Positions 415 through 46,290 of a stretch of 64,000 nucleotides of DNA are shown piece by piece. The DNA comes from Glaucostegus cemiculus (Eukaryota), in the NCBI GenBank assembly GCA_976551045.1, contig CDPCPM010000056.1, positions 33,108,001 to 33,172,000 on the forward strand. Reading direction: 5' to 3'. Within the stretch, counting starts at the first letter, position 1. Each line of letters starts with the position of its first letter. The translations under genes were made by a program, and so were the position numbers. Below the pieces are notes generated by a model. That model did not search any database. It saw only the letters and a list, made by a program, of their open reading frames with translations, and had not been told where the DNA came from.

Positions 415-598
415 CAAAACCTGCAGATGATGGAAATCTGAAATAAGAGCTGCAAATGCTGGATATACGCAGCAGGTCAGGCAGCATCAGTAGAAAGAGA
501 AACAGTTAATAGTTCATGTCAGAACCAAAACATTAATTCTTCCTCTCTCCAAAATTCCTGTCCAAACTACAAAATTTTTCCAGTAGTTTCTCTTTTTA
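415..598. mobile_element. Short Penelope-derived terminal-repeat element, inverted pair of arms with the hammerhead centre largely deleted
   Basis: The left arm gatggaaatctgaaataa...gcaggtcaggcagcatc...gagaaacagttaat is the reverse complement of the decayed right arm aaaacattaattct..ctctctcca...tttttccagtagtttctc. The same family occurs at 16575-17222 and 46190-46290. Confidence 0.6.
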
Positions 599-599
599 A

Positions 600-905
600 T
601 GCTGTTACAGTATTGCTTTTTGTCTGATACATTAAATCAATCCACCCTCCACTCACACAGTTATAGGTAAAAGATCCCACAGTACTATTGCAATGTTTGT
701 GCAGTTCCTTTAGGTGTCCTGGCCAATATCTATCAATCAATCCCTAAAAATAAATTATTGGGTTAATATCATAATCTGTTTCTAAGACTCCTCTTCATAT
801 TGGTTCTAGAGTGTATGAGGGTAGTTACATCTCAACAGTACTTTATTTTCCTTCACATACGTCATTGACTTCATGTCCCTGAGGTGAAACAAGATCCCAT
901 AAATT
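600..905 (+). mobile_element. Deu-domain SINE remnant (SacSINE1/AmnSINE1-like)
   Basis: Contains gtaaaagatcccacagtactatt and ggtgtcctggccaatat, matching my recollection of the DeuSINE central domain. Confidence 0.6.
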
Positions 906-2581
906 CTGAGTTTGGCCAATACAGCACTCAAGGGCACACTTCTGCACAGGCTTTATTGGGAAAATGGCACTTCTTCATCTATACCTGATTATTCCTTTCT
1001 ACGTGCATCATCTGGCCTCATATCCTCACTTACACTGTCTCCATGCCTAGCTGAGATTTCCTAAGTTGTTGCCTGGGCAGTGAGAAAGCAAGTGTGGCTG
1101 GAGTACCTTAAGAACAGGTTGAATCAGACAAATATGGGTCACAAATTCCAAAGAGTCTCTTAGAGCTCTGTCACCATCGTCAGATAGAAAGAAATAACTT
1201 TTCATTTTCATCCTTATTATCCTCAATTTCGTCCTCTTCATCTGCCTCTGCCCCCATTGTTGTGATGGAGCTCGAAAGAATAAAGACTTCAGCCAAAATT
1301 TGGTGAGCATAACTCTTTGATTAATAAATCAGAGGAAGTTAATGACTGTCTGCTACTTTACATGGGTGACACATTGATTGTCTGAATCAGACACCAACAA
1401 TGGTCATGCATTAGTTACTGAACTAATAAGTCAGACAACTTGAGTGCATATCTCATCTAGGTACCTTGAGAATTTGAATTCAATTTAAATAAAGACACTT
1501 TTAAAGCAGCAAAAGAAAGACACCTCTTGTAAAAGTAGGCTCCATTTGTTGAAAATATATAGTGAAACAAAATTGGATAGGAAATCCAGAAATGAAAACA
1601 CATGGGTAAGCAAAATAAGTATAAATTTCCAAACTGCCTTTCCTGCGAGTTTAAATTGATTGCCTTCATAAATGTACAAACCATTTGTTCAAGAAAAGAT
1701 GTGCTTCATGCTTTCAGTGAACCCACTGGGTACATTGGACTGGATTATCCTGGATCTGGTCCACTGCCCAAAGGTTCTTAACCATTCACATTTCACTTGT
1801 GCCAGATAGCAAGGACTGGCCATGCTGATCATCCTTGCCTGAGCAGGAGCAGATGACATTCTTGAAGCAGGGGTAAGGCACCAGGGGACATCCTGGGGTC
1901 CATCACCAGGACCTATTAGTTGCCTTTGACAGTTTGTTGAAGCCAAAGACTTTTTTAATTTTCTCTGATTGTTAAAGATTTATAAAAATGGGAAAACAAG
2001 AATTTAAAACAATAGATATGAGATAGTTATTTGACTTTATTTTAATGCAACAATAAGTGCGTAAAAATAAAGTCAACTAAGTGTATCACATACTTCCCTG
2101 TTTTTACAGGGGCACCAACTCCATTTAAATGAATAAAAGATGCAGAGTGCATGTTGTCCCCCCTCCCTCAGTACATCAGTGCTCCGCTGGCAGATCCTGT
2201 GCTGAGTCCACTGTCGAGGGGGAAGTGAAATGAGCTAGCATCTGACCTAGAGCTCATCTCAGATGTCCATCTTTCAGCAGATAGGCACAGGTGCAGAAAC
2301 TATTTGAACAATGAGAAGGTGATAGCTGGTTGTTTCCTATAGAAAGGCCAGCAAAAGGTAAGTATAACAGCTCATTATTGATGCTAATTGTAATTGCACC
2401 ATTCCATTTGTTTCATTGTATGTTGCTTTCCCCTCACACTGTTGAAACAATTTTTGTCTACAGAAAGAATGAGGATCTAATTCAGAATCACACAATACAA
2501 TATAAAGAAGAAAGAGTGTGATTTCCATCACGCAATGAAGATCATTGTTTTCTAATCATCTTGTTTTTGTCAATCCATTAG

Positions 2582-2733
2582 GTTGGCGTCCGGCAGGCAA
2601 GGGATTCATATCAAGAACTTCAACACCAGATCTATCCTCACTGTTACTAACATTACAGAGGATCACTATGGCAACTACACATGTGTGGCTGCCAATAAGC
2701 TAGGGACAAGTAGTGCCAGTCATTTTCTACACA
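2582..2733 (+). CDS. NEGR1: IgLON family, neuronal growth regulator 1: internal exon encoding the C-terminal half of Ig domain 3
   Basis: Branch-like ctaat at 2552, pyrimidine tract, acceptor AG 2580-2581 and donor GTAAGT at 2734; 152 nt, phase 2 to phase 1. Encodes [50 protein letters not shown]. This has the I-set Ig motif GNYTCVA and closely resembles human NEGR1 as I recall it ([41 protein letters not shown]). Confidence 0.93.
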
Positions 2734-3799
2734 GTAAGTCTTGTGAAAGATTCCTGCATTCATTATTATATTTCAAAATGAACACTGTGATGGTGAAATG
2801 GATTTAAGAGAGCTGGATATACATTTTTATTTCATTATATTTTGATATATTGTCAAATCCAAGCTGTGTAATTCCAGTTATGAGTTCTTTTAACTTAACA
2901 ATTAAATTATCGTGCTTCCCTTTTGGATTAGTGGATAAGCATGGAATGAGTTGTAGTATTGACCAATATTGAATATTCACCAATAACATTCTCAACACAT
3001 GAGAAATGGCTGTCTGAGCCAGGTGTTCTAAGGTATCCCCTCATTTTCCCACTTCACACATATTGAATCATATCCTATCATGCTAGTGATTATGGAAAGG
3101 AAGCAAGTAAATTAGCAAAAAAAAAGTTAAACCATATTGCCCTTATTTGATTTTATGTCCAAAGAATATGTAGCACCAGGTATAGTGTAATGACAAGCAA
3201 CTTATGTGGAAATTTTTTTCAACTTCCTAAGATACCAGATAAAGATAACTGTTTGCTTGGTCAAAGGAATTTCCATTCTTGTTGTCGCTTCCAGTCATTT
3301 TAAGGTGGTCGTAGAATTAGTGCTGGATGCAGCATTGTACTCATGTTTAGAGAATTTCAATTCTCTGTTCCTCATATGGCATCTTTAAGTTTCACTGTTT
3401 CAGTAACATACCTAGTGTTGAATTTGAAAGATGGAAAAGGGGAAGACAAATAATTAGTCTAACATAAAGGCCCATTTTTGGAAAAAATCAAAATCCTCCT
3501 CGATATCCCTGCAACATGCTGTATACCTCAAGGTTGTTCTGTCTCTCTTTTCTGCCTCAGCTCTTTACAGTCTTCTGAAAAGCACTCACTGCCTGACTGC
3601 CTCCAGGTTTCATGGGTCTCCTTTTCATTTTATAAATCTGATTCCAACAGCAGTGTTTCAATAGAAGCTTCTAAACTTCCTTCCCAAGAATTTAACCTAA
3701 TAGCCCAGTTTGGCACGGCCTCCAAGTTCAATGAGCATGCCTGATTGCTCAAATTTCAAGTAATCTTTCCCTGCCTCTTGATGCCCTATCTAAAATCTA

Positions 3800-4230: not shown

Positions 4231-6045
4231 TCTAATTTTTATTTCCAAAAATATATTTTAATCATAATGATATACAGTAAATACCATTAGGGCATGTCTT
4301 TCTCTGTGATCATTGAATCATCAGTTCAGTACATTCTCTTGCAATGTGTCAGTGCCACTCACGTTTCCTCCTTAAACAATGCTCCCATGAAGCATTTGAG
4401 AGGCTGTTACATAGGGCCCAGCCTCTCAGTGTTCAGTGGTGGCAGGACCCTAGACTGTGTTCCTATGCTTCAGGGCATCCCTCAGCACATACTCCTGTGT
4501 CTTGAAATGTGCATTTGCTTTGTGGATCTCTTCTTACACTGGAAGCCCAACAAGTTTCGGGCAGACCAATGTGTATCTTTCAACCAGTTGGTGATCTTCC
4601 AGCAGCAGTTGATAATCATCTCAGTATGCATCCCTGGGAAAACCTTGTGGAGCACAGAGTCCTGTGCTATACATTTGCTAGGGTTGAACCTCAAAATGGA
4701 CCTCTGAATCACTTTCTAGACATTCTTGGCAAATGCACAGTCCATGAGGAAGTGAACGATCATATCAACCACACCACAGCTATCTTGAGAGCAACATGAG
4801 GCAGGATTGAGACACCAGTTAGACATGAAGGATCTGATGGGCGGGTCCCTCTCATTGCCAGCCAAGTGAGGTCTTCATGAAGACACAAGGGACTGCAGCT
4901 GCTGGAATCTGGAGCAAAAAAAAAACTGCTGGAAGAACTCAGTGGGTCAGGCAGCAATCTGTGGAGGCAGAGGGATGGTAGACATTTTGGATCAAGATCA
5001 GGACTGAGAGTGTAAATGGGATATATCCAGTATAAAGAGGTGAGGGGGAGAGTTGAGGCAGGAAGCGGCAGTTGATGGGTGGATCCAAGTGGATCCAGGT
5101 AGAGCCAGGTGGGGGAGGGAAGGGTGCAGATAGCGACAGAGGCTGGGAGGTGATGTGGAGACAACAAAGGGCAGCAGATTATGGAATCTCATAAGAAAGG
5201 AAGGTGATGAGTGGAAGCAGCTAAAGGAGGGATAGTGAGCAAATGGGAACTGTGGGGGGAGTGGGTGGGAGGATAAGGGTACCGGTGGTTAACTGGTGGG
5301 TTAAGGGTGAATGGAACCAGGTGGGGGAGGGGAAAGAAGCAGGGTAATAGGGGGCCGCTGAGGGTTTTGAAAGGAAGGGTGTGTGTGAGAGGACCTGCAT
5401 ACATCAGAAGAAGAAAGAAAAGAACAGGTGGGGTGCAAGTTACCCGAAATTATAGAATTCAACATTCATGCCAATGGGTTTTAGATTTCCCAAGCGGAAC
5501 ATGAAGTGCTGTTCCTCTGGTTTGTGTCTGGCTTCACCTGGCAGTGGAGGAGGCTGAGAACACACAGGTCAGTGTCAGAGGGAAAATGGCTTGCAGCTGG
5601 GAGTTCAAGATGGCCATGGTGGACAGAGCATAGGTGCTCAGCAAAGTGGCCGTTTGGTCTCACCGATGTAGAGGAGGCCACATTGGGAGCACTGAATGGA
5701 GTAAACAAGGTTGGAGGAATTGTATGTGAAACTCTGCCTCACCTGGAGGTGCTGGTCAGATCCCTGGATGGTGGTGGGAGAGGACATGAAGGGATGGGTG
5801 TTGCACCTCCTACAGTTGCAGGGGAAAATGCCAGGGAATTGGGAAGGATGGGTGAGGAGGGAAGATGAACCAGGGATTATGGAGAGAGCGGTCCCTGTGG
5901 AAAGCAAAAGGGGTGGGAAGATGTGCCTGGTTGTGGGATCACATTGCAGCTGGTGGGAGTGATGAAGAATGATGTGCTGGATGTGGAGTCTGGCAGGGTG
6001 AAAGGTAAGGACCAAGGGAACTCTGTCTCTGTTCTGTCTGGGGGG

Positions 6046-6318
6046 ATGCTGTGGAGGGAGTCTCCAGTTTTAAATTCCTGGGGGCACACATCACCGAGGA
6101 CTTCTCCCGGGCAATACACACCTCAGCTGTCATTAGGAAGGCACAGCAATGCTTCTACTTTTTGAGGAAATTGAGGAGAGCCAGACTGTCTCAGAACATT
6201 CTGGTGAACTTCTACCAGTGTGCAGTGGAGAGCATCCTGACATACAGCATTACTGCTTGGTATGCCAGCTGCACCAGGAAGGAGCAGAAGGCTCTGCAGA
6301 GGGTCATCAAGACGGCCC

Positions 6319-6362
<44 letters not shown>

Positions 6363-6655
6363 ATGTCCTCTCCCCTTCACCAGCCGGACTCACCATGGTG
6401 TTACCTAATGACCTATGCTGCTATATTGATATTGATATGCTACTGATTATCATTATTATTACTATCATGGTTCATTTGCACACTGCCTCTTTATATTTTT
6501 ATACTTTATATTTGTGTAAGTATGTTTGGTTCTATTTTCATAGTCATAATCACTCTTAGCAATTTATTAGGCAAGGGGGTGTCATCGTAATTTTGTTGTG
6601 TTGTTGTTCTGCAACAGTACAATGACAAATAAAGAAATCTTGAAATCTTGAAATG
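6046..6655 (+). mobile_element. Rex1/Babar-type LINE, 5'-truncated, nested in the Penelope copy
   Basis: Peptide VSSFKFLGAHITED...KAQQCFYFLRKLRRARLSQNILVNFYQCAVESILTYSITAWY, and a 3' tail aatgacaaataaa-gaaatctt-gaaatctt-gaaat. Confidence 0.8.
6322..6361. repeat. (AC)n microsatellite
   Basis: About 20 AC units, directly visible. Confidence 0.97.
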
Positions 6656-7944
6656 GAGGAGATGTAGATGAGGGCTCCATCAATCACAGTAGAGGAGAAA
6701 CCTGGAGTTGCAAGCCTCAGCTCAAGAACAGATGTGGCGCAGATAGAGAAACTGAGAGAAAGGCATGGCATCAGTACAAGAGAGAGTGCAGGAGAAGGTG
6801 TGGTCAAGATAACTGTGGGAGTCAGTGAGTTCTCATAAATGTCAGTAGATAGTTCATCTACAAGAGATGCAGATGCTGGAATATGGAACCAAAAAACAAG
6901 CTGCTGAAGGAACTCAGCGGGTCAGGCAGCATCTGTGGAGACAAAGGGATAGTCAATGTTTTGGGATGCTGGAACCTGGAGGTGCTTGAGATTGTTTGTG
7001 AGGTCTAGTGATTAGCCATTCTTCCAAATGGCTTTGATAGATTGCTTGGGGAACCAGTCCACCCTAGCTACTGTCCCTTCCTCCCACACAGCCTCCAGTG
7101 TCTTCCGTACTGACCACTGTCTTATGGTCTTTCTGTGGTCAAAGGTGTTTGCAACACAAGGGACAGGTTGAACCTCAACACATAGTGACACCTGGTGTTT
7201 GTGTACTCTGGCTCTACGCATGGCTTGATGCAGCCACACTCAAAGGTAGAGCCACACACATTTTTGTCTCCACACACATTTTTGTCTCCACACACATCTG
7301 GGGAGAATTGTGAATTGTACATCACATGAATTGTACATCATAACCCAAGGGAAGTGATCCATCCTGGATCTTCAAATGCAGCAGAAATCAGCTCAGGTGA
7401 CTGTCATGAAACAGGACTGGGTATGGGTTATCTCCACATCACATACAGTGACACTAAGAGGCCTCACGCCTGCCTCTCACCTCATCGAGAGGAAGTGCTG
7501 CACCCACATTCACCATGGCTATCCACTCCAGCCAATTCTTGCACGTGCCCTGGTTCCTCTGATCTAGATTCCCAGCACCTTCAGGTAGTCAGACTTGACA
7601 GTGAAGTGAGCAGAGGATTGTTTAGGCCAATTGCCAAAGCGGGTGGCCTCACTCTTGCCGAGACTGATTCTAGTTCAAACTGGTTGCAGATGCTGATCAA
7701 TCTGTGGATCCACTGTGGCTCCAAGCAGAAGACAGTGTCAACGTCCATGTTCAGGGATCTGAGTGCCTCCACTGCCTGGCATTGTCACCCCTATAATACC
7801 CATGTCATTCCTGATGGATTCAGCAAAAGGCTCAATACAACACACAAACAAAACAAAGGAGAGAGAGGAGAGAGGTCAGCTTGTCTGACTGGATTTGATT
7901 AGGAAGCTTTCTGTTTCCCACCCATTAACTTGGACGGCACTACA

Positions 7945-8057: not shown

Positions 8058-8094
8058 CTATGTAGAGCAGATGTATCCAATTCCTGTTTCCCTC

Positions 8095-8375
8095 CCTTAA
8101 GCCTGTTTTACACTGTTCACTCTACCACCAATTTTGGTGTCATCTGCAAACATACTAATCACGCCACCTACATTCTCTTCCAGATCAATAAGATATATGA
8201 TGAACAACGTGGACCCAGCACTGATCCCTGTGGCACACCACCAGTTATCGGTCTCCAATCAGAAAAGCAGCCCTCCACTACCACCCTCTGTCTCTTTCCA
8301 CCAACCCAATTTTATATCCAATTAGCTATCTATCACACTGGATCCCATCTGTTCTAACCTTCCGGACCAGTAGCA
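8095..8375 (-). mobile_element. CR1 LINE reverse-transcriptase fragment
   Basis: accaccaattttggtgtcatctgcaaacatactaatc reads ISMFADDTKIGG on the minus strand; GVPQGSVLGP is also encoded at about 8210-8240. Confidence 0.85.
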
Positions 8376-9850
8376 TACAGTAACATAGTAACATTTTAAT
8401 CCTCCTCCTCTACCTTGCAGAGGTCAACTGTCGGATGCCTCCTTATGCCTTCCTCTGGACCACGACCCCACCAACGAATACCGGGCCACTCTCTCTAAAC
8501 TGTCACAGATCTCATCACATCACGTCATCACATTCGATCTCATCTCCACAGCCTCCAACCTGATGGTACCCCAACCCCTCATTTTTGGCTTTTATCTCTT
8601 ACCCAAGGTCCATAAACAGGACCATCCTGGTAGGCCCATTGTTTCTGCCTGCTTCTGCCCCACTGCCTTATTTCCTCATATCTTGAGTCTCCCCTGCCTC
8701 CCTTAGTCCAGTCCCTTCCCACCTACATCTGGGACACCTTACATGCCCTCCAGCATTTTGACAACTTCCAATTCCCTGGTCCCCACCAGGGAATGTCCAG
8801 TCTTTATGTACTTCCATCCCCCATCAGGAAGGTCTAAAAACCTCCACATCTTTCTACGACAAAGATGCAACCAGTTCCCCACCACCAACACTCTCATCCA
8901 CCTGGCTGAACTTGTTCTTACCCTTAAAAACTTCTCTTTTGACTCTCTTCACTTCCTACAAATCAAATGTGTAGCCATTGGGACCCGTATGGGCCCTAGC
9001 TATGCCTGTCTTTTCATTAACTATGTGGAGCAGTCCCTGTTCCAAACCTTATCTGGTACCATTCCACATACTCTTTCTCTGTAACATCGATGACTGCATT
9101 GGTGCTGCTTCCTGCACCCATGCAGAACTTGTCAGTTTTATCACCTTCACTACTAACTTACACATTGCTCTCAAATTCACCTGGGCTATTTCTGACTTTT
9201 CTCCCTTTTTGGATCTCTCCATCTCAGGAAACAAACGATCCACTGATATTTACTATAAACCCACCAACTCCCACAGATGCCTAGACTACACCTCACCCCA
9301 CCCTGGCTCTTGTGAGGACACCATCCCTTTCTTCTAGTTTCTCTGTCTCTACTGCATCTGCTCTCAAGATGAGGCCTCCCATTCAGGTACATCTGAAATG
9401 TATTCCTTTTTCAGGAAACTTGGCTTCTTCTCTACAATGGTTGATGGAGCCATCTCTCAAATTTCCTCTGTTTCTCAGACTTCTGCTGTCATCCCACCAC
9501 CCTCCAAACAGATCAGAGATTGAGTGTCCCAAGTCTTCACCTTTCACCAAACTAGCCTCTGCATGTAGCACATAATCCTCCATTATTTCCACCAGCTGCA
9601 ATGAGATCCCACCACAAGCCACATCTTCTACTCCCTACACTTTTCTACCTTCCACAGGGTTTCCCTGGTCTGCTCATCCCTCGCCAGCCACCCCTCCCTG
9701 ACCCCTGGCACTTTCCGCTGAACCACGTAAAGTACAACACCTGTCCCTAAACTTACTCCCTCACCACCATCCAGAGACCTGAACAGCCCTTCCAGGTGAG
9801 GCAGAGAAGCACATGTGCCTCCTCCAACCTTATCTACTGCATTCGGTGCT

Positions 9851-10012
9851 CATAAGAACATAAGAAATAGGAGCAGGAGTAGGCCAATCTGGCCCGTCGA
9901 GCCTGCTCCGCCATTCAGTAAGATCATGGCTGATCTGGCCTGGACTCAGCTCCACCTACCTGGCTTTTCCCCATAACCCTTAATATCCCTACTGTGCAAA
10001 CATCTATCTAAC
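9851..10012 (-). mobile_element. CR1 LINE 3' end inserted in the Penelope GIY-YIG domain
   Basis: Tail cataagaacataagaaataggagcaggagtaggcc...gcctgctccgccattca splits the CIRC-S-xCG codons of the host element. Confidence 0.85.
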
Positions 10013-10710
10013 TGGTCCTGATGTGGCCTCCCCTATGTTGGCCACACCAAGCACAGAATATAGGACCAATTTGCAGAGTATCTGTGTTCTGTCCACTGTG
10101 GCCATCCAAAGCTCCTGGTTCCATGCCATTTCAACCCCCATTCCCCCACTGACCTGTTTGCACTCAGCCTTCTCTACTGCCAGGGTGAGGGCCAACATAA
10201 GGGCCCAACACAAACTAGAGGAACAACACCTCGTATTCCACCTGGAGAGTTTACAACTCAATGGCATGAACATTGAATTTCAGGTAACCCTCACCTCTTA
10301 TGTTCCCCCTCCCCTTCCATCTGATCTACCTCCAGTCCTCCCATTTTTGTTCACCTTACCAAACCCTTCCCCCTCCAGCCACCCATCACCCATTTTCATC
10401 CCCTTCCTTCTCCTGATTCCATCCGCCTACCACCTACACATTTCACCCAGAGATCTCATCCCCCATCTGGTTCCATCTGCCCTTCACATCTCCCATTATC
10501 ACCTTCTTACCTATCAGATTCCAGTACTGTTAGCCTTTGTGTTCCTGTTTATCACCCTCCTTGCTGTCTCCACCTTCACCCTCCCCACCCCTCACTTGGC
10601 TCCATCTACTTGTCATCCTTCACTCCTCCTCTGTCCACCAATCGCCTACTGGCTTCTGTCTCACTCTTCCCCCTCTTCTCTTTATTCTGGTTCTCTTCCC
10701 CCTCTATTTT

Positions 10711-10746
10711 CAGTCCTGATGCAGGGTCCAGACCCAAAATCTTGAC
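10711..10746 (+). ncRNA. Decayed minimal type-I hammerhead ribozyme motif
   Basis: CAGTC-CTGATGCA-GGGTC-ca-GACCC-AAAA-TCTT-GAC. Stems I and II are intact; G12 and stem III are mutated. Confidence 0.6.
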
Positions 10747-11671
10747 AATATCTTTCCCTTCATGGATGTTGCTCAACCAACTGAGTTCCTCCAGTAGATT
10801 GTTCGTTGACAAAATGTAGCCTTGCAAATATATTTCAATTTTCAGTAGAATATGCAAGACTGTCTTAGATAATCAGAGCGTGTAGGATAAATATGCTGTC
10901 TGGTGATGTCAATACAATCAGCAGGTCTTTACCCTGCATTCTTATGCAGATGAGGATGGTTTCTAGGCTCATCAAGTTGTTCAATATGTGGGTGGAGGTT
11001 CTGCCAATGTTACTTCCATTCTAAACAGCCATCGTTAGATTGATGAGGGAAAGGGAACTTGGTGTTTCAAAAACAATATACTGCATATGCTGGAAATCTA
11101 ATGCACAAACAGAAATTTTTGTAAATTCTCAGTCGTGAGTCAGTATGTGTGGAAAAAAAAACTCATGTTTCAGATCAGTGATGTTGCATCATGCCCAGTG
11201 TTGCATCTCACATGAAAGACATTGAATGAACCAAGGCCAACCTTGGCATTTTGTGCCAGGATCACTTGGGCACTAGAGTTTGGAAGAGCAATAAGTCAGT
11301 CAGAACCTCTCGTTGATGCTAAGCATCTTGGACCTGTGGCAGGTGGTTATTGCCAAACCCAAGAGATGATACACCATCAAATCCTCCAGTCTGAGACAAG
11401 ATGGGCTTAATCATTCTGAAGTTGGACACCATCCATCCTCAAACCCTAGCCCATATTAACATGGTATGGCTGTATGGGTCCAATTATCCCGGGCCTCACT
11501 ATTCCAGAATCAGGTAGTGAAAAGCATACAAGGTTTCAGCATTCTGCCGAGGCGCTGTCCCCAGAATCCCTGACAGCCTTTGACAGGAGGTAAGGCTGGG
11601 ACTAGAGTTGTCCTCCTGTCAAAGTTTGTGGGGTTTCAGAACAGATTTTGGATATCTCAGATATTCAGAGG

Positions 11672-13463: not shown

Positions 13464-14330
13464 GACAACGTAATCCAGCCTTCTAGTCCCTTTCTTAATG
13501 ACTAAGAGCAATGCAGACCTGCCCCATGACACCATGTGACTACATTTCCCAAGCTAAGGTGAGCCCTTGACTGCAGTCAGTGAATTCTTTACCCCAGTCG
13601 TTGAAACTCCAAACTTGTGAGTTACTTCAGGCTCTTTCCTCTCCACTGGCTGTGTTCCTTGGAGTCTGTATAATTGTGTTGATGGTTGTGTTGGTGGTTT
13701 ATAAACACGCAAGATAGACTGTCTATAGGGTGTTTTCTTATTTTGCTATTCCAGCTCCATGGTATTAAAGTGGTGACAAATGTTGGGTTAAATGACAATC
13801 AACTGGGCTGTCATCTGACGATCATTCCTCCCCTACTCCCTCCCACCACACCCCTCCCTCCCAGGCTCCCGTAGCACCCATAGTAACCCCACTGCATGTG
13901 TGGTCAGAATGTCCTTGGTCTCCTGATCCCAGAGTCAAGGTGTAGCAAGGCCTCAGCGGGGACAAGATTTCAGCTAATGTACACTAAGTCCCCACCCCAG
14001 AACACTCTGGCAGTCCATAAAAGGAGGCAAGGCTGGGAATGAGACTCACCTCCTGAAATCATTGTCAAGACTTAATAAGAGATTTTAAATGTGAACTCCA
14101 CAGCCAGTTAAACATGAGCAATTACATTGCATATCCCAAAAGAAACCTTCAAATGCAGGATGTATTACAAAATAATAACTTTAAGCTATTCTTTTGCTTG
14201 TATATGTCTATTACCATAAGTAATGAAGCCAAAATCTAGTGTGGCTGAAGCCTTATTCCCTTGTTGTTTTATAAATAAGGCCTAATTAGATTAGCTTTAT
14301 CAATTGGAATCAAAGCTCTGTCATTTCTAA

Positions 14331-14430
14331 AACAAAAACATAAAATGCCTAAAAAACTCAGCAAATCACGAAGCATCTGGGGAAAGAGGAATAGTCAATG
14401 TTTTGGGTCTGTGATCCATTATCAGAACTG
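14331..14430 (-). mobile_element. Short Penelope-terminus element with a decayed hammerhead
   Basis: Minus strand reads CAGTT-CTGATAA-TGGATC-aca-GACCC-AAAA-CAT-T-GACTA followed by the family tail. Confidence 0.7.
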
Positions 14431-16574
14431 TAATTCCTAAAACTCCTTCAGTCTCAACCTTTCCTTTTGGGTTAGGTACCATTTTATTGCAGGTGATTCA
14501 TCTGCACAGTGATAGATATGCACTCAAACTTTAAGCCATGCTGAAAGTTATCAGAAGATAATGCAACATATAGTTAATTTGCAATGAAGCAGTGTGCTGT
14601 TCTTTGAAGACGTGAGTTTGTGAAGTTTTTCAAATGTAATTTATAGGTATAATGCAAATTCTCTTGGGTATACCTGATTCAGCCACAATAGGATTGCATG
14701 GTTTGGTACAAGTTTGGTGTGAGCCAATAGTAAGAGAGTAACATGCTATTCAGCAAAAACTTTGTTTCATACAGATGCAGGGTGGAAAGTTGGTTAATGG
14801 TACTTTAGGATGATTCAGAAGGAATTATAAATCATGAAGAAATGGAAATATTTGCATCAAACCAAATGTCTTCCTGTGCCTATGAGAGTATGGAAATTCA
14901 AGGCTCTAAATTATTGATAGCCACTTGAAAAGATTTTCTGCTTCCAATCATCAAAAAATTGCGCTTTCCTTCACCTTCAATCTTTGTTTCCTTCTACATC
15001 TTGCAGATATTTGAAACAATGCTTGCTATTATTGAAGCAGCTTTTGTTCATTTATATCTTTGTTCTCCTTTTAAATCTTGATGGTGCCCTTGAATTACAT
15101 TTTTCAATTCAATAAGTACATTAAGCTCTGCAAATTGGGAATTCAGTACACGGTCTAACTTTTAATGCTTTTTAGAGCATCTATCTGCAGCCATTTTCAC
15201 AATTTTGACTACATTATTTGCTCATTATCACCGTTTGCCAACTTCAGTCCAATGGGCTGCATCATGATTTGGATTCCACTGTATGCTTATGATGAAAATT
15301 CACTAAAAGGTTACTGATTAATAAACAGAAAAGTACTTGTTAGCAGACAAAAGTAGATGCAAAAATTTACAAGGAGTTTTTTGATCAAATAATCAAGCGA
15401 GAATTTGTTCTTCTGAAGGGAGTGTTTTCATGAGGATCTGCTTGGCAAACATTTTTTAGGTAAGCAGTGAAGTCTCTTGTAATTTTTCGTTGTGGTATAA
15501 TGCAGAAATCAGCCTTTGCAGTTTTTCACAGACCCTGGGTGAAGGGCTGCAGTTAACTGCACTAGTTGAAAATAAAACAAATACCTAGATTTATAGTAGT
15601 GGTTAACTGATACCAGGTTTAAATCTTCAACAATACATTGCAACTGGTTTAACCCTTACCAATCTCTGGTCAACACTGAAACCAGGGGAATATGCATTTG
15701 CGACACTTTATGCATTGCATTTGTTGTTTGATGGCTGATCCTAAGTTTATTTATTAGTTTACAGCAAAATGAATAGAGGACAGAAAATCCAGAAATCTGA
15801 CTCCAAGTTTAATTTAAAAATGCAGAGTTAAAATATCATGCATTGATATCAAATACCCACTTTGATTTGGAACATTTGAAACCAAAAATAGTTTAGGTCT
15901 GAAGGATTATGAATCTTTTTCATGTTTGGGATGATAAATCTAATCACATTTTAGACATTTGAAAGGAGGCTCATGAATAAAGAAAACTAGAGCAGTATCT
16001 GTGTGCATACCATTTATAGATTCAAGTGGAACTGGGATTGCCAGGGAGGAGCTAGCACTGAAGTAATCTGATTACATTTCTATTTGTAGCCTTTGAATAT
16101 GTAGTTTATTCCTCATTGGTGTTTTACCAAAGAAAAAAATTGAGTTCAGGATTTTGTTTATCAGCACAACTAAAACACTGCCCAGCTTCTTAACTGAAAG
16201 CTTGAGTGGTGATAAGCGATTGTTCCCCAGGGTACCTGTGATAAAATAATGTGAATCCGTTTAGCGGAGTGTTGATATTTAAGATACAAAGAAGTTTGTT
16301 TCTTTTGCTATAGGTCTTTGTGCTTCTGTGATGGAGCAATTCTTGAGGCAGATCAAGAAGGTTGGCAAGTTCAGTGGTCAGATGATGCCTACATCTCCCA
16401 TAATAACATTGAACATAACAACAAAGCTTCCATTTATACAGCACCTTTAAAGTGGCAACCACATCTCACAATACTTTATCAAATAGAATTTTGTCATTTA
16501 TCAGTTTGAGGTATATCACTCTTCAGTTTGTATGTGTCTCTCTGAGCTTCCAGGATCGATCCTGTCATCTTACA

Positions 16575-17222
16575 AAAGCAAATCTGTGGATGTTGGAAAT
16601 CTGAAACAAGACTGTAAATGCTGGAAATAAAAACAGAAAATGCTGGAGAGGGAGAAACAGGGTTAAAGTTTCAGTTCAATAGCATTAATTCAAAACTGGA
16701 AGTGAGAAAACAAGTGTGTTTTAAGTTAACAGGGGAAGGGACAAAGAGGACAAAGTGAGTGTCAGATTTCTAGCAACTGCTGTGCTCTACATCTCACAAC
16801 TCCAGCATGTTTTTGCTGTTTTTTCCTTCCATCAACTGACCTCATTCATCTCCCTTTGCTCACACTCCAGAGAGATCAGCAATGATTTGCTGGATGCAAT
16901 GCTGTCACCAGGACAACACTGGTCACAGATATTCCCTTTGTTCTCTCCACCCTTCCTCTTCTCTTCGACATAAAACAGGCTTGTTTTCTCATTTTTCCAG
17001 TTCTGATGAAGGCTGTTGACTTGAAACATTGATTTTGCTTCTCTTTCCACAGAAATTGTTTGACCAGCTGAATGTCAACAGCACTTGCTATTTTTATTTC
17101 AGTCTTACAATATCAACAGTTTTTTTTACTTATTGAATGCTGTAAAAAGTCTGGCAATCAGATAACTTCTATGGAGGGGTAAACATAGTTAATGTTTCAG
17201 GTCAATAACCTTTCATCAAAGC
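16575..17222. mobile_element. Cluster of three short hammerhead-bearing Penelope-derived repeats (minus, plus, minus)
   Basis: Plus motif AGTT-CTGATGA-AGGC-tgtt-GACTT-GAAA-CAT-T-GATT at 16999-17034. Minus motif TTGATGA-AAGGTT-att-GACCT-GAAA-CAT-T-AACT at 17187-17219. 16580-16760 is an inverted copy of 16925-17125. Confidence 0.75.
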
Positions 17223-17317
17223 ACTCACACTCTGACTTCCCCATGTTCCAATGAAAGCCAATAGGAGCGTGTAGAACAGTGCCCTCGCTTTCAATTAGGC
17301 ACTTTGCAGCGTTTCAC

Positions 17318-17585: not shown

Positions 17586-17614
17586 ATCAGAGGCTAACAA
17601 TTTGCAAAATGAAA

Positions 17615-17737
17615 ACTAAAAGCTGCTGATGCCAGAAATCTGAAATAAAAACAGAATATGCTGGGGACATTCAACAGGTAAAGCAGCAACTGGAGAGAAA
17701 TAGCTATCATTTAGGCCAGTGATTCTTCAACAGAATT
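17615..17737 (-). mobile_element. Short Penelope-terminus element (decayed)
   Basis: gatgccagaaatctgaaataaaaacagaatatgctgg...caggtaaagcagcaactggagagaaa, the same family tail. Confidence 0.65.
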
Positions 17738-17994
17738 TTGCATTATGACTCTGCTCCCCAATTTATACTACTTCCACAAAAAATGTTTCTTGGTCTGATA
17801 AAAACTCATTGACTTAAAACAACACAGGGCTTTGCAATTGAGACTGACTCTGGCCAATTCCACAATTAGATGTAGTTTCCAACATTACTCATTAATGTTC
17901 TAGATAGTAATCTGTTGTGTGAAACTCTACTCTGTACCATGTTTCCCTTTTTCCTAGCTCTGGGTGCTGAAAGGAATTTAGTAGCCTTTTCTTA

Positions 17995-20575: not shown

Positions 20576-20577
20576 AC

Positions 20578-29000: not shown

Positions 29001-29410
29001 TTTGCTAATTGTCTCAAGGAACAACCTCTGGATATTGTTATTAGAGAGTTTTGATTCATTTATCTACAGACTTATTATATATTCCATTTAATAATGATTT
29101 TATATTGTTCAATCTTTAAATATGTTTTTTGCGCTGTTTTAAAATTAACTCTTCAGTCTGGTAAGAGCATTGTGTCAGAATATTCATGTACCAGTGTAAG
29201 TGGAGCTGTTAAAATATAGTGTAAACTCCATGAAATTTAATTTAGTTCTGCTCTTTGGCTCGGTGAATAACCTACTGAATCTGTTGGGTTAGCATGCTAT
29301 GGTTTGATCATTGGTCTATCCTGGTTCACGTCTGTTCATCCAAGATGGTGTTAAATTTTGTCAATGTGGGTCAAATACCCTGGGTCAAAGACAAATAAGG
29401 TGCAGCCTCC

Positions 29411-30910
29411 ACCTCAGGAGACAGATTTGCCACTGATATCTTCTATAAACCCACTGACTCCCAAAGCTACCTTGACTGTACCTCCTCCCACCCTGCCTCT
29501 TGTAAGGATGCCATCCTTTTTCCTCAATTTGTCTGTCTCTGCCATTTCTGTTCTCAAGATGAGGCCTTCTATTCTATGGCTTTTGAAATGTCTACCTTCT
29601 TCCTGAAATGTGGCTTCCCCATTGCCATAGTTGATGGAGCTCTCACATGCATTTCCTCCATTTCCCACATGTCTGCTCTGACCCCTCCCTCCTCCAACTT
29701 CTCAGAGAGAACAGCAATAGACTTCCCTCGGTCCTCGTGTTTCAGCCCGCCAGCCTCTGCATCCAACACATCATCCTCTGCCACTTCCACCAGCTCCAAC
29801 ACGATCCCACTACCGGTTACATCCTCCCCTTTCCCTCCTTTCTACTTTCCAGGGGACCACTCTCTTTGTGACTCGCTGGTCCACTCATCCCTCCTCACTC
29901 CCCTCACCCCGTCCTCTGGCAGCAGGTGTAACACCTCCACCATCACCACCATCTGGGGACCTACAAAGCTCTTCCAGGTGAGGCACAAATTCACCTGGAC
30001 CTCTTTCAACCTGGGCTACAGCATTCAGTGCTCATTATGTGGCCACCTTGACATCAGTGATTTCTAACTTCAGGTAACACACACACACGCACTCACTCTC
30101 TCCTCCCACACTCACTTACCATCCTAGTTTTAGAAACATAGAAAACTTACAGCACAATTCAGGCCCTTCGGCCCACAAAGCTGTGCCGAACATGTCCCTA
30201 CCTTAGAAATTACTAGGCTTACCTATAGCCCTCTATTTTTCTCAGTTCCATGTACCTATCCAAAAGTCTCTTAAAAGACCTCATCGTATCCACCTCCACC
30301 ACCGTTGCCGGCAGCCCATTCCATGTACTCACCACTCTCTGATTAAAAAAACTTACCCCTGACATCTCCTCTGTTCCTACTCCCCAGCACCTTAAACCTA
30401 TGTCCTCTTGTGGCAACCATTTCAGCCCTAGGAAAAAGCCCCTGACTATCTACACGATCAATGCCTCTCATCATCTTATACACCTCTATCAAGTCACCTC
30501 TCATCCTCCGTCGCTTCAAGGAGAAAAGGCTGAGCTCCCTCAACCTGTTTTCATAAGGCATGCTCCCCAATCTAGGCAGCAACCTTGGAAATCTCCTCTG
30601 CATCCTTTCTATGGCTTCCACATTCTTCCTGTAGTTTCCTTCTCCCTTTGTTCACTTCTCCCATCCCCTTCCCCCCTCCCACCTCATTCCATCTGCCCAT
30701 TATTCCTTTCAGATCTGCTTCCACCTACCACTTACCAGTCTGTGTCCCACCTTCCACCAACCTACTCTCCCGCCCCCTCCGTACTGTTATATACTGGCAA
30801 TCTTTCCTGTTCCCTCTCAGTCCTGATACAGGGTCTTGACCTAAAACATAACTTTTGCCTCCAGAGATGCTGCTTGAACTGCTGAGTTCATCCAGCATTC
30901 TGCTTTTTAT
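29411..30910 (+). mobile_element. Penelope-like element, 5'-truncated, with a CR1 insertion
   Basis: IFYKPTDS and FQVRHKFTWTSFNLGYSIQCSLCG peptides. Terminal motif cagtc-ctgataca-gggtc-tt-gacct-aaaa-cat at 30818-30849. Confidence 0.85.
30131..30632 (-). mobile_element. CR1 (HER1-like) LINE 3' end
   Basis: ORF 30343-30621 LFSLKRRRMRGDLIEVYKMMRGIDRVD; tail tagaaacatagaaaa. Confidence 0.92.
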
Positions 30911-31387
30911 TAAGGTATGGCAGGATTTCCATTCATGTTAATTTTGGAATGAATGCTTCTCTAAGTGCTTCTAAATATATGACTATCAACAGTGATCAAT
31001 ACTGGGCTTGGCCATTATTACAGAATTTGAAAAGCCCATCAGCGTTCACTGCCTAGGCTCATTTATAAGTACTGGTGCGTGAAGTAAGATAGTTACAGGG
31101 GCAGGGTGGAGTGTTTTGTGGATAATTCCAGAGGACTGCCTATATGAAAGTGTTTATTTTATTCCCAGTTAGAATCCTAAAAGTCAGTAATTTTTTTATA
31201 ATGAAGATCTGGAGCTGGTTCATAATCTGTCCTGATTATGGAGCGCCATTTGATTACATCTTTAGTGTCACATTTGAGCCTGACCTGACTGGCAGACTAA
31301 TAGATGCTGTGAAGAAGCAGTACCTTACAAATGACTGTTCTTGACAAGAAAATGTGCAGTAAGGCATGACTTCTCTTATTTTCACAG

Positions 31388-38526: not shown

Positions 38527-38822
38527 GAGTGGTGCAGCTGGATTCATTCCTGACCTTGGGTGCTTTCTGCATGGATTTGGTATGTTCTCCCAATGGTCGC
38601 ATGGGTTTCCTCTGGTGCTCTGGTTTCTTCAGACGTGCGGATTGGAAAGTTAATTTGCTACTGTAGATTGCCCCTAGTATGTGGTTGAGTTTTAGAATCT
38701 GGAGGGAATTGAAAGAATGTGGGGGGATGAAAAAATAGGATTAATGTAGGATTTGTGTAAAGTGGTCAGTGTGGACTCAATTTGCTGAAGGACCTGTTTC
38801 CGTACTGAATCTGTCTATGACT
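38527..38822 (+). mobile_element. V-SINE
   Basis: V domain atgggtttcctctggtgctctggtttc and tail gaaggacctgtttccgtactgaatctgtctatgact. Confidence 0.8.
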
Positions 38823-40029
38823 GTAGGTGTTATTGCAGACTAACAGTAATTACCTCGTGTTTCTGCCACAAGTACACATGATTTGTTTGCATATTTGCAT
38901 AAAATATTCTTCCAAAGCCCCACCTCCAAGCTGAAATTGATGGAAATGCTCTGGAGCTCTACTTATAAAAGAACTGAGCAAAATAATTAGGCACTTACGT
39001 TATACAAGTTCAAGGATCATTTCAGTGTAACACAGAGAGCTCCAAGCAAATAATGGAAGATGCATTTCTCATCTTGAAGTGCATCAAGATTGACCAGACT
39101 TATTTATCTTTCCTTATGCAAGTTGTGAAAGTTCAGAATTAATTCCAGGTCCTTAATTTCAAATCATTTTCTGCCTCAGCAATCTTTCACTATTATTTAT
39201 TTTCATGTGGTGTGGGAGGAAAAAAAAGGAAACTTTAACAAGGTGAAACATATGTTTACAGAGGCAAGGATAAATAGAATAGTTTTCCTAGTTAAGTTTC
39301 ATCTGGAACATCTTTCATGTATTAAATAATCAGACATTTTGAATGACAGTGCACTTCCATAAAATGTTGCCATGATATCTTGGAGTCAAACTATACAAAC
39401 CAAAACTACTGTTATCATGCTGTGCTGGCTTGGTTTATGACTACACATATCCATACATCCTTGACATCAAAATCACTGACCATATTTTCTTTTGGCTTTG
39501 TGGTAGTTTTTCATTCCAGACTTATTGAAATTGATTTTATCTTTGTAAAATCTACTGATGTGATGTATGATTACTTCCTGTGTGGAAAAAATGGAAAATC
39601 GCCAGGATGTTTTGTTTTCACTTCCATTTAGCATTTTAATCGTTGAAGAATTCAATGCCAAAAGATTACATAAAATTCAGAGATCGTACCTACATGGTTA
39701 GGAGAGGGAAGAAAAGAATGTACACACATACTAGGTTTAAGATGTATTGGGAGGTGCTACAAGTGAACTGAATGCACAAAGCTGACATTTAATGGGTGGT
39801 CAGATTATAGAGTTTTGCTTAACCACTTTCTGATGCTTTCGATTTCATAAGCACAATCCAAAACTTATTAGAATAATATGTCAAATTAAATCCCTTTTAA
39901 AAATTAAATTGACCTTTCTCACATTCACAATCTAATTATTTTCAGGGCCTCTGAGTAATGGTACTTGTTCCCGCTCTTCTATTTCCTTTCCTCTTACATT
40001 GTATGAGTTTTAATTTTTAAAAACTGAAT

Positions 40030-40800
40030 AAATTTCACCCCTAATTTTCACCCTGCTCTCCAATTCACTTGGACTGTCTCTGACACGTCTTTCTCCTTCC
40101 TTGATGTATCCATCTCCATCTCAGGAGATTCCTGAGCCACCAACATCTTCTACAAATCCACTGACACCCATAGCTACCTTGATTACAGCTCCTCCCTCCC
40201 TGTCTCTTGAAAGGTTGCTATCACTTTTTCTCAGTTTCTCCACCTACACTGCATCTGCTCCCATGATGAGGCTTTCCACTTCAGGACATCAGAAATGTCC
40301 AACTTCTTTCCTAACTGTGGCTTCCCCCCTACTGTGGTCAGGAGAGCTCGCACCCACATCTCTGCCATTTCCCGCACCTCTGCTCTCACCCCCACCCCTC
40401 CCAAACCCAACAGGGATAGGATCCCCTTTGTCCTCACATTTCATCCCACCAGCATACATATACAACACACCATTCTCCGCCACTTCCGCCATCTCCAATG
40501 GCACCCCACCAAGCATATCTTCCCCTCCCCACCCCCGCGCCTGCCTATCACTTTCTCTTACCTGCATCTACCTATCACCAACTTGTGCCCACCCCACTTC
40601 CCTTCTTTTGTCCACCTATTACTGCTCTGTTTTCCCTCCTATATATTGGGCTTCCCCTTTTCCTATCTTCAGTCCTGAAGCAGGATCCTGACCCGAAACG
40701 TTGACCACCTGATTTTCTCCATGGACGTAGCCTGGCCTGCTGAGTTCCTCCAGCATCATGGTGTTTTTCATTGAGATATTCCAACATCCTTTGTCCTTTG
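40030..40800 (+). mobile_element. Internally deleted Penelope-like element
   Basis: NFHPALQFTWTVSD..FLD, IFYKSTDTHSYLDY and DRIPFVLTFHPTS peptides. The GIY-YIG part is deleted; the terminal repeat runs from 40660 to 40790. Confidence 0.85.
40670..40707 (+). ncRNA. Best-preserved minimal type-I hammerhead ribozyme motif
   Basis: caGTC-CTGAAG(C)A-GGATC-ct-GACCC-GAAA-CGT-T-GAC. It has stem I GTC/GAC, stem II with one mismatch, intact GAAA and the palindromic AACGTT typical of dimer-forming Penelope hammerheads. Confidence 0.7.
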
Positions 40801-43309: not shown

Positions 43310-43552
43310 AGAAACATTGAAACTAACAATATTCTATTCTAAGTGCACATTTTTTCACCAAGTGGATAATTAATCTTTATTATTCCTTACAGAAGAGGCC
43401 CATGAGGACTAAGTCATTGAATAAATTCAATACTTTTAGATATTGATGGAATCAAAGTACTGTATGTGGGTCAGTGAAGAAAAATGGCATCAAGGTAGAA
43501 GATTAGTCACAAGGGGCCAAATGACCTACTCCTGCTTCAATTTCTTATGTTG
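43310..43552 (+). mobile_element. CR1 3' end (decayed)
   Basis: tttttcaccaagtggataattaatct...aagtcattgaataaattcaa...aaggggccaaatgacctactcctgcttcaatttcttatgtt. Confidence 0.65.
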
Positions 43553-44199
43553 TTAAATGATATACAGTAAAGAATGATTTCACTATTCAAGTATCATCAA
43601 AGTAAACATTAAGCTGAGAAAGATATATCAATATTGCTGAACTTATGAATGTTATTCAGCACACTTTTCATTTGCTTGCTTACAATGAGCCAATAGATAG
43701 AAGAGTTTGACAGAAGCACCCAGTGATTCATTCAGGAACTGTACTGTTTAGGAAGGCCCAGGCTTCAATCTTCTTTTAAGTTCATTATTTGGATGCTGTG
43801 TTTATTGGAAATTCAAATGCCACGATGCCAATTTGTAAGATTGAATTTGATAAATTGTTGAGCCAGCACCAGTAATCATTACAATAGCTTGATTATTGTA
43901 AAAATACCAACCAATTCACTGCTATTCTCCAGAAAAAAAAAGTACCACCACAATACAATCTGAACTAAATGTAATTCTAGTCATACAATGTAGATTTGAT
44001 TTAATGTATTTGGGGCAGTTTTATGGAAATATAAAATAAATCCATCATTATTTGGATTGTGCTGAAATTGTGACATCAGCATTATTCACATCCTAATTTT
44101 TTTTAAATTCTGATTTCAAAGGGGAGAAGTGCAAGCACTCCTGTACTGGCTTTTGCACTTGTCAACTGGATTTGTGCAGTAAACAACTTGGAGTGAGAT

Positions 44200-44705
44200 C
44201 AAGAGTAATCTATTAGCATGGATAGAGTATTAGCTAGCTAACAGAAAACAGAGAATGGGAATAAATGAACCATTTTTAGGTTGCTTAGATGTAACTAACA
44301 GTTTATCGCTGAGATCATCACTGGGCTTCAACTATTTATAATCTTTATGAATACTTGAAGAAATTAAAAAAGTTTTGAAAGAAATATGGAAAAATTAAGT
44401 GCACAAAAAATTGGCAAGTGGACTATAATGTGGGGTAAAATGAGACTTTGCAGGAAGATTGGAAAAGCAGTATATAGTGACAGACTATAGACTGCTGCAG
44501 TACAAAGAAATCTTAATTATCCTGGAGTGTGAAATACAGCAAGTTAGCTGGGAGGTACAATAAATAATTAAGAAGTGAAATGGAATATTGGCTTTTATTG
44601 CACAGGGAACAGAGAATAAAAGTGGATTAGAGGCCATGATCAGCTTCGCCACGATCTTACTGAATGGCAAATCACGCTTGAGAGACCAACTTCTTATGTT
44701 CCTGT
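44200..44705 (+). mobile_element. CR1 fragments (heavily decayed)
   Basis: tattagcatggatagagtattagctagctaacagaaaacagagaatgggaataaatg (WIE.WL..RKQRVGING-like) and tail gccacgatcttactgaatggc. Confidence 0.6.
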
Positions 44706-46189
44706 GCTCAGATATATCTGCATTCAGTGTCAAAACTCATCCATGAATGATAACCTCTAAGTTCATCAATATTGATACATCTTTCCTAGCATAATGTTTA
44801 CTCTGACGATACTTGTTGGTGAAATGATAAGTTCTTGGTAGCAAGGGTCACTTCAGATCCTTAGAACCTTGCAAGCAGAAGAAATCACTGGGCAGGTAAT
44901 TTGGACAAAAATATAAATTATATGACATCAATGTCAGTTTAAATAGCCAAGGATAAAATGATACCAAATGTATGATAGCATTTCAATTTCTACCAAAATC
45001 ACTTGTCAAAAATTGGACCATCCTTAAAACTAGGTTAAAAAAATAGCACTTTTGGAAGCATTACCCTGAGTAACTTAATCCCGCATTACATGGGAAACTT
45101 CACACTAAATCAACTGTCAGTATTAATATTATCTATCTGTGTTTGAGATATAGGAACACAATAGACTTGTAAGAAATAATACTTTAAAAGTAAACCTCAT
45201 TTGTTTGACGTTGAAAAGAACACAAAAACCACATGTAACCTGGAGCCTTTTTCATATAATCTTCAGCTAATGATAGAAGAAAAATGAATGGTATGTTAAC
45301 AATATTCACTAAACAACATTTACCATTTACCAGTTGTATTTGGTTATGGTGCGTGATTAAGCTTTGGCCCGCATAATAATTTAAAATATTAAATGTCACA
45401 GAGAGACAGAGTTAGTAAAGGACACACTGTGAACTTTAAGTCATCCTCAGGGGATTAAAATGCAGACATTAATAAACTACTGTCAAATCAGATCAGAAAT
45501 TTACTTCCTTGATTCAAGTTATAGTGTTAAAATCTTAACTGTACAAGCTTAGTCACTGGAGGTGTCACTGTTATGGGCTGTCCAGATTGCTCTGGACCCA
45601 GCTCAGACTTGTGGTTGCACTCCACACTAGCCCCGTGGTCACATTAACTTTTTGCAACCATGTCGCTCCCAACAACATTGAAACCTCACTGCTGCAGCTG
45701 TTCTCTGAGTGGCAACAGGCTCTCCAATAGTGCAAGCTGAGGCCCCTTCCACAGACTACCCTGTTGACCTTCTGACACCTTGTCCTACCTGAAGGCCATT
45801 TAATTATTTCCAAATGTCTCTGATGATCAGAGGCATTCAGAAACAATTGAAAATAAATAATTTTCAACTTTAAAAATGAATAATAAAAATTGAGCTCATT
45901 TAAAATGCAATCAACTGTCATAAGTTAATTAAAACATCAATATTAATTAAAATAACGTAAGATGAAGAAACACACCTTCATTTTTTTTTAATGAAGCTCA
46001 GCTCCCCATTTAAATGAAAGGGCACATGTAAGATGCTCCAGTTCTGACTGGCATAAGGCTGATGTGAAATGTATCTAGTTTTTTGTCTTTGGGCATTATG
46101 ACCTCCAGTGCCTTCTCTAAGTTTGTGTTGCAGAACACAGGTGGAAAGGTCTGGAACATCTGTAGCTAGCTGGCAGCAGGATTTAGCCT

Positions 46190-46290
46190 ATTAAAAACTG
46201 AAAATCCTGGGAATACTTAGTAGGTCAGGCAGCATCAGTGGAAAGAGGAACAGAGTTAACATATCAGGTTAAAGACTTTTAATCAGATGT
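46190..46290 (-). mobile_element. Short Penelope-terminus element with a decayed hammerhead
   Basis: Minus strand reads CTGATTA-AAAGTC-ttt-AACCT-GATA-TGT-T-AACT followed by the family tail. Confidence 0.7.

Follow-up and report, generated by a model that had tools for sequence, protein, structure and literature searches.

Penelope-like elements (PLEs) are a known source of minimal hammerhead ribozymes, which lie in their pseudo-long terminal repeats (pseudo-LTRs, or pLTRs). PLEs are described as having inverted pLTRs with palindromic junctions, solo pLTRs, TATA- and initiator (Inr)-like sequences within the pLTR and an optional tail (PMC3846280), and solo or opposite-strand minimal hammerheads 100-700 bp apart have been ascribed to truncated PLEs (PMC4209133). 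The minimal hammerhead cuts weakly as a dimer (PMC4209133), and hammerhead cleavage with the element's protein has also been described (PMC11167929). Hammerhead mutants left insertion unaffected in vitro, making cleavage unnecessary there (PMC11167929), and the role of the PLE hammerhead has been called unclear (PMC8557442). Here we analysed a 64,000-nucleotide (nt) stretch of the Glaucostegus cemiculus genome (assembly GCA_976551045.1, contig CDPCPM010000056.1, forward-strand positions 33,108,001 to 33,172,000), hereafter the window, in which a first-pass annotation made from the letters alone had placed about ten hammerhead copies between positions 415 and 46290. These copies are probably the fossil pLTR ends of Neptune-type PLEs from two subfamilies, one adjoining coding remnants (CAGTC-type stem I) and one consisting of short copies (AGTT-type) that would be pLTR-only products. 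The known link between minimal hammerheads and Penelope pLTRs is thereby extended to cartilaginous fish, with the copies as fossils.

A profile built from ten seed copies was run on the window, with the reversed window as the null. It returned 14 matches at E<1e-4, comprising the ten seeds and further copies at 520 (plus strand) and at 11191, 16702 and 17722 (minus strand); the top match in the reversed window reached only E 0.1. In leave-one-out profile tests, 14 of 16 candidates were recovered at E<=2.9e-5, the weak ones being 17791 (plus strand, E 0.2) and 46625 (plus strand, E 0.027). The layout of the repeat is a hammerhead-like head followed by a conserved tail of 70-110 nt. The dispersed repeat family is real, and nine of the ten sites in the first-pass annotation hold, with 17791 alone weak. 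The annotated interval does begin in a family member at 415, at the tail end of a further copy. Five insertions were inspected for target-site duplications and gave no convincing one. Bacterial and archaeal genomes scanned with a 21-nt tail motif yielded six matches, all due to chance and without flanking homology.

The five CAGTC-type copies all adjoin PLE coding remnants from the reverse transcriptase (RT) and endonuclease (EN), so that their placement on coding Penelope copies stands in 5/5 cases. The remnants of the open reading frame (ORF) and their pLTRs are:

5440..6045, minus strand: PLE ORF remnant with Zn-finger-like linker and GIY-YIG (profile E 3.6e-35 for 5641-6045; C-terminal block at 5544)
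6701..6860, minus strand: PLE RT-thumb remnant belonging to this same insertion and separated by an unrelated insert at ~6050-6690 (tblastn E 5e-9)
4888..5078, minus strand: coding-type 3' pLTR with an 8-nt deletion in the core/stem II (leave-one-out E 1.5e-27; alignment)
6868..6966, minus strand: direct 5' pLTR fragment joined onto the RT-thumb, without the 5' core half (E 7.7e-23; sequence)
8425..10290, plus strand: longest PLE ORF remnant, from RT to the end of GIY-YIG, broken, with an insert at ~9855-10013 (protein comparison)
10632..10815, plus strand: coding-type 3' pLTR with A9>C and G12>A (core scoring, leave-one-out)
29402..30060, plus strand: 5'-truncated PLE ORF remnant with an internal EN deletion, followed by a LINE-like (long interspersed nuclear element-like) insert at 30135-30620 (protein comparison)
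30746..30930, plus strand: coding-type 3' pLTR with G8>A, A9>C and G12>A (core scoring, leave-one-out)
40022..40534, plus strand: 5'-truncated PLE RT remnant that lacks the EN region (tblastn E 2e-60, 63% to P0001)
40563..40800, plus strand: coding-type 3' pLTR, the sole copy with an intact GAAACGUU half, with A9>C (core scoring, leave-one-out)

The remnants align to full-length proteins containing RT and GIY-YIG, the closest named ones coming from the rays Mobula hypostoma and Hypanus sabinus. Every remnant is broken and the window holds no intact ORF; Pfam returned nothing for 8/8 window PLE fragments, and a full-length chondrichthyan ORF was not recovered, the best long matches being ~45% identical. 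A CxxxxCxxC linker is present in close homologs and degenerate in the window at ~5830 (minus strand). A CX2-5CxxC linker between RT and EN marks Neptune and Nematis elements (PMC8557442), and only Neptune and Poseidon are reported among sampled vertebrates (bioRxiv 10.64898/2026.07.22.740005); because of this reported distribution, combined with the linker, we call the window PLE Neptune-type. The coding copies begin at differing points in the ORF (8425, 40022, 29402 and 6860) and thus form a truncation series. Staggered 5' ends, a direct pLTR pair (6966/5078) and head-to-head pairs are the traits of EN-bearing (EN+) PLEs, and all are found here. Position in the pLTR, coding context and PLE architecture agree in supporting an origin from minimal hammerheads on Penelope-like termini, as had been proposed.

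We also observed that 6868-6966 (minus strand) is fused to the coding remnant at 6860, skipping roughly the first 590 codons and giving an internally deleted direct-pLTR element of ~1.4 kb. A candidate ATG lies ~30 nt after G12 and is kept in 6 of 10 copies. Penelope pLTRs hold introns. The tails of most copies, for example 489-510 and 6934-6955 (both minus strand), contain a branch-point-like word, a pyrimidine run and CAG before the candidate ATG, resembling a 3' splice site, and a second such stretch lies near the tail end.

The two types separate on a tree of the copies (support 90/91, below the star threshold), which is star-like with long end branches (near 0.2). Mean identity among the hand-aligned copies was 67% within the coding type, 61% within the short type and 56% between them. 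The tree places the short copies together on one side, so both subtypes are real; of the stem I letters first given for them, AGTT together with AACT occurs in 0/11 scored copies and GACTG likewise in 0/11. A profile built from coding copies only retrieved six short copies at E<1e-4 and extended ~50 nt into the untranslated region (UTR) of the copy at 16999. By homology, the short copies belong to the pLTR of the coding copies as its second subfamily, with the 3' tail in common. The option given second place in the first-pass annotation, extreme 5' truncation of another Penelope subfamily, is the best fit. The 3' ends of 14 copies fall into two loose groups, +62 to +87 and +94 to +114, ~25 nt apart with a gap that is not sharp, a grouping that resembles the optional 30-40 nt PLE tail (PMC8557442, PMC3846280).

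The short-type copies, and the coding remnant beside one of them, are:

404..523, minus strand: short-type pLTR fragment with the hammerhead 3' half and a long tail, its 5' end in stem II (E 2.8e-20)
520..599, plus strand: head-to-head partner of 404-523, with a tail that may reach ~620 (E 2.9e-5; self-complementary alignment)
11070..11191, minus strand: solo short copy with C3>A and A9>C, absent from the first-pass annotation (E 1e-9; core scoring)
14326..14433, minus strand: solo short copy starting at CAGTT, with G8>A and G12>A (E 1e-14; core scoring)
16573..16763, minus strand: short-type pLTR with ~70 nt of upstream UTR, head-to-head with 16927-17127 (E 2.3e-19; upstream homology z 22)
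16927..17127, plus strand: short-type pLTR, the sole copy with all core letters, palindrome lost (CA) and stem II weak (descriptor, core scoring, leave-one-out)
17136..17221, minus strand: short-type pLTR fragment with C3>U, lying tail-to-tail against 16999 and directly beside the EN remnant (E 7.7e-13)
17224..17312, plus strand: decayed C-terminal GIY-YIG remnant, inverted relative to 17187 and followed by a LINE-like insert at 17320-17590 (two-block protein score 50.8, post hoc)
17616..17734, minus strand: short-type pLTR with a long tail (E 7.6e-15)
17785..17821, plus strand: weak hammerhead remnant, facing 17722 head-to-head across a spacer whose one TATA-like word both share (E 0.2)
46191..46317, minus strand: short-type pLTR fragment with G8>U and A14>U (E 5.8e-18)
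46625..46656, plus strand: possible head-to-head hammerhead remnant, weak (E 0.027)

Relative to G12, the significant short copies begin between -96 and -5, whereas cleavage would be expected after +7, and they measure 80-201 nt; every one retains sequence 5' of the cleavage site and none begins there. None of the 17 tandem-repeat rows in the window involves a short copy, and upstream sequence does not match sequence past the tail, as circular permutation would produce (best z 2.3 of 14 comparisons). The first-pass annotation had suggested that the AGTT/AACT copies are a ribozyme-processed non-autonomous family. With no tandem copies, none starting at the cleavage site, no permutation and homology to the coding pLTR, a ribozyme-processed retrozyme is not supported. 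Short copies as monomers of a non-LTR retrozyme, arising from ribozyme-cut, circularised RNAs that were reverse transcribed and reinserted, we regard as very improbable: they are just ~61% alike, and their motif is the minimal PLE type, whereas the retrozymes described carry the canonical type (PMC7229834). In its favour, an origin from PLE pLTRs is reported for retrozymes, as is their presence in the one chondrichthyan sampled (bioRxiv 10.64898/2026.07.22.740005), and copying a ligated circle could also retain the whole hammerhead.

Inversion is frequent among the short copies. There are two solid head-to-head pairs, 415/520 and 16702/16999 (random placement gives two or more at P 0.005-0.03), and two with a weak partner, 17722/17791 and 46254/46625 (three or more pairs by chance, 0.00005-0.002). 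The stem II loop forms the centre of the 415/520 inversion, whose self-complementary alignment is near-gapless; 16702 and 16999 share ~70 nt of upstream UTR (homology z 22); and the interval 16573-17821 comprises six fragments in alternating orientation. Between the 46254 and 46625 copies we noted a degenerate self-complementary stretch (46385-46656) with its centre near 46520.

The interval 17224-17312 translates to the C-terminal end of GIY-YIG. Its single-block score is the third highest in the window and is reached by 13 of 60 shuffles; joined to an adjacent frameshifted block, it gives a protein score of 50.8 against a null maximum of 30+-3, reached by 0/60 shuffles in a test devised once the site had been noticed. 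At the DNA level, 17224-17320 has no significant alignment with the coding copies (p 0.16 and 0.78), so the EN identity is supported at the protein level only. The description of the short elements as free of coding remnants thus applies to 8/9 of them, and 17187 abuts an inverted GIY-YIG remnant.

Several points weigh against deriving the short copies from a Neptune-type PLE. No coding sequence was found beside 8/9 significant short copies, and no autonomous parent of their subfamily lies within the window; all counts come from this one stretch and not from a genome-wide copy set. The EN remnant at 17224-17312 depends on a post hoc test, its single block is not significant and its link to the short subfamily is one of adjacency only. 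Finally, 6/11 short candidates (two of them weak) start at -31 to -20, which a dedicated short element would also give. Such an element, a non-autonomous mini-element made of pLTRs alone, solo or as an inverted pair, and copied in trans by Neptune RT/EN without ribozyme processing, would account for the separate side of the tree, the missing coding neighbours and the partly clustered 5' ends, and pLTRs are described as sufficient in cis for trans-mobilisation (PMC3846280). We nevertheless consider it unlikely, since the junctions differ among the inverted pairs (stem II loop, TATA and UTR), lengths range from 80 to 201 nt, an EN remnant adjoins the copy at 17187, and neither shared private sequence nor a convincing target-site duplication was found. 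What the copies themselves display is pLTR homology, coding context, truncation, inversion geometry and core damage.

Core scoring covered the 11 copies in which both halves of the core survive; 4975 was excluded for its deletion, 6950, 415 and 520 for lacking the 5' half, and 46625 as weak. The motif stemI-CTGATGA-stemII-GAAA-CGT-H, which had been presented as observed, has 0 occurrences in the window as written, and exact CUGANGA is found at just one of the sites first listed; the motif is a fair reconstruction that exists in no single copy, the individual copies having decayed. In correct order and spacing, 99/121 core letters are kept, a figure that leans high because registers were set by eye. 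All 11 core letters are kept only in 16999, which reads CA at positions 15.2-16.2 and has lost the palindrome, and the CG palindrome is kept only in 40670, which has C9; no single copy is a complete minimal hammerhead in core and stems. Positions 15.2-16.2 read CG in 1 copy, CA in 6, TG in 1 and otherwise in 3, the CG state being reconstructed from CpG decay: the observed/expected CpG ratio of the window is 0.16, and both decay products of the CG palindrome, CA and TG, are present. The decay appears skewed to sense-strand CA (6 CA, 1 TG), a small sample in which shared source mutations could have the same effect. Stem I is 3-4 bp long, a fifth pair holding in 2/11, and the first stem II pair is intact in 11/11. 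The majority core letters of the short subfamily fit the minimal hammerhead core; the core of the coding subfamily has C9 in 3/3 and A12 in 2/3 scored copies. None of the present copies is likely to cleave.

A relaxed hammerhead descriptor compared with eight shuffles of the window gave 1, 2 and 12 matches at 0, <=1 and <=2 core mismatches (shuffle means 0, 0.1 and 2.6), and 4 of the 12 are family members. A search with the Rfam hammerhead models, the check first suggested, found no match in the whole window (E<=5) or in the two best copies (E<=10). The Rfam MIR821 match in the window is an artefact of 16999 and 17187 lying inverted and tail-to-tail. Folded singly, copies show no advantage over shuffles (z -1.9 to +1.1), and RNAalifold placed 0 pairs in the tail alignment. 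A long hairpin in one copy (z -1.9) was rejected, being without family-wide support.

The missing Rfam match, the single-copy folds and the absence of significant covariation are what would be expected if the hammerhead were a chance resemblance in an ordinary repeat end. We judge this most improbable, given 99/121 core letters in the right order and spacing, an intact first stem II pair in every scored copy, and a pLTR position and architecture that fit the published minimal hammerhead consensus. Covariation in stem I had been offered as support for a real RNA structure, and it is weaker than claimed, as no measure beats shuffles and each pair records one event. In the automatic alignment, which offsets stem II by one column between the subtypes, 238-365 of 500 shuffles reach the observed covariation values, and pairing was 63% versus 23-47% for slid partners. 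In the hand register (n=11), the stem I pair beside the core is CG in 2, UA in 4, UG in 3 and CA in 2 copies, and the first stem II pair is GC in 3, AU in 6 and GU in 2. The two double changes between subfamilies, one event each and without statistical support, are suggestive.

All of the pieces seen match published PLE anatomy. For the ribozyme activity of the source and the steps of insertion we draw on the literature. The source pLTR would have borne a minimal type I hammerhead with a 3-4 bp stem I, a 5 bp stem II and a palindromic ACGU replacing stem III, which probably could cleave only when dimeric or assisted by the element's protein. The RT/GIY-YIG protein would have nicked DNA and, with uncleaved RNA as template, begun cDNA synthesis in the tail 3' of the hammerhead; premature stops, with template switching or self-priming, could then have generated 5'-truncated copies, solo pLTRs and head-to-head inverted pLTRs. 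On this scheme the short AGTT-type copies would be pLTR-only products of an older subfamily, and all copies would have decayed after insertion, mainly at CpG sites.

The C9 change is common to 3/3 scorable coding copies and the short copy 11191. With end branches near 0.2, we judge independent change unlikely, and the source of the coding subfamily probably had C9. In the hammerhead, A9 pairs with G12 beside the metal site. A9 is treated as invariant (PMC3088659). On a reading that we hold as rather less likely than not, a batoid Neptune subfamily spread from a C9 source (CUGANGC-A), and either the next A takes the role of A9, so that this is a new natural variant of the core that still cleaves, or the ribozyme was already dead while the element amplified; transcription may also start at the first stem I base, the short copies being run-off cDNAs. 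Dead-ribozyme amplification, if true, would provide evidence in vivo that Penelope retrotransposition can proceed without cleavage. Two sister subfamilies that differ in this way, with a canonical core on one side and C9 on the other, would make a natural pair for asking whether cleavage matters to spread. Apart from this shared odd core change the locus is ordinary, of use for repeat annotation and little more.

The run-off idea refines the derivation from fossil pLTRs. Transcription would begin at the first base of stem I, with TATA ~30 nt upstream and an Inr-like CAGT, and RT begun near the transcript 5' end would run off after 100-130 nt, producing discrete short cDNAs without calling for a separate non-autonomous family. 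A TATA-like word (>=5 of 7 letters) lies at -34 to -25 in 6/6 copies with upstream sequence (against a background of 0.11 for the same UTRs and 0.39 for the whole window), and one with >=6 of 7 in 3/6. Stem I ends at the A of CAGT, the candidate start base, and 5' ends cluster at -31 to -20. As described for inverted pLTRs, 17722 and 17791 share one TATA word (PMC3846280), and an internal RT start has been shown for the PAc element (PMC11167929). The six TATA words are homologous, however, and so count as one or two events, and the clustering of 5' ends may trace the region of greatest profile strength; we hold run-off as a possibility on the doubtful side. Were it true, run-off from stem I would account for the abundance of solo minimal hammerheads across animal genomes, and under this model a discrete copy length alone is no proof of a non-autonomous family.

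Other features of the window include an immunoglobulin (Ig) I-set domain exon at 2580-2735 (plus strand; Pfam E 2e-6, 1 of 100 ORFs scanned, 182 listed), and the repeats may sit in introns of a large plus-strand Ig-domain host gene. LINE-like remnants lie at 6009-6446, 8128-8396, 17320-17590, 20110-21680 (RVT_1 at 20992-21555), 30135-30620 and 51540-52020; three have landed within Penelope copies or clusters, and 17329-17584 matches 30135-30399 at 84% identity, so these inserts are the younger. A separate dispersed family, SINE-like (short interspersed nuclear element-like), occupies 11680-12160, 19760-19920, 27360-27475, 32160-32380 and 38540-38840 and may resemble shark V-SINE/HE1. Inverted repeats at 43574-43645 and 44758-44828, 85-88% complementary and ~1.1 kb apart, are possibly DNA transposon termini, and a 70-nt direct repeat (54414-54483 and 54834-54903) is 82% identical at a distance of 420 nt.

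Among the literature matches listed, none deals with this chondrichthyan family or the C9 variant, which does not in itself establish absence from print. Published minimal hammerheads resemble the window copies in core order, the extra nucleotide before stem II, a short stem I and palindromic 15.2-16.2, and also in a U-rich upstream region, pLTR position, mostly solo copies and close opposite-strand pairs. They differ in having A9 in 56/56 listed examples (from a descriptor that demands A9) where the coding subfamily of the window has C9, and in that the window copies are all damaged; no cartilaginous fish is among the listed examples. Non-LTR retrozymes (PMC7229834; bioRxiv 10.64898/2026.07.22.740005) are likewise short, non-coding, hammerhead-bearing and pLTR-related, but their definition calls for tandem units bearing complete hammerheads, and they yield circular RNAs, whereas the window copies have neither tandem units nor complete hammerheads. 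PAc, a Poseidon element of Anolis (PMC11167929), shares the order of hammerhead then tail, insertions ending at two nearby points, and insertion from uncleaved RNA as proposed for the window elements; it belongs to another clade, and its ORF starts inside the hammerhead, whereas the window candidate ATG lies ~30 nt after G12 (PMC11167929). The window copies include no intact ORF, and the Neptune-clade EN+ PLEs (PMC8557442, PMC3846280) match them in RT, Zn-finger-like linker, C-terminal GIY-YIG, 5' truncation, direct and inverted pLTRs, a TATA/Inr-like pLTR and, less clearly, an optional tail.

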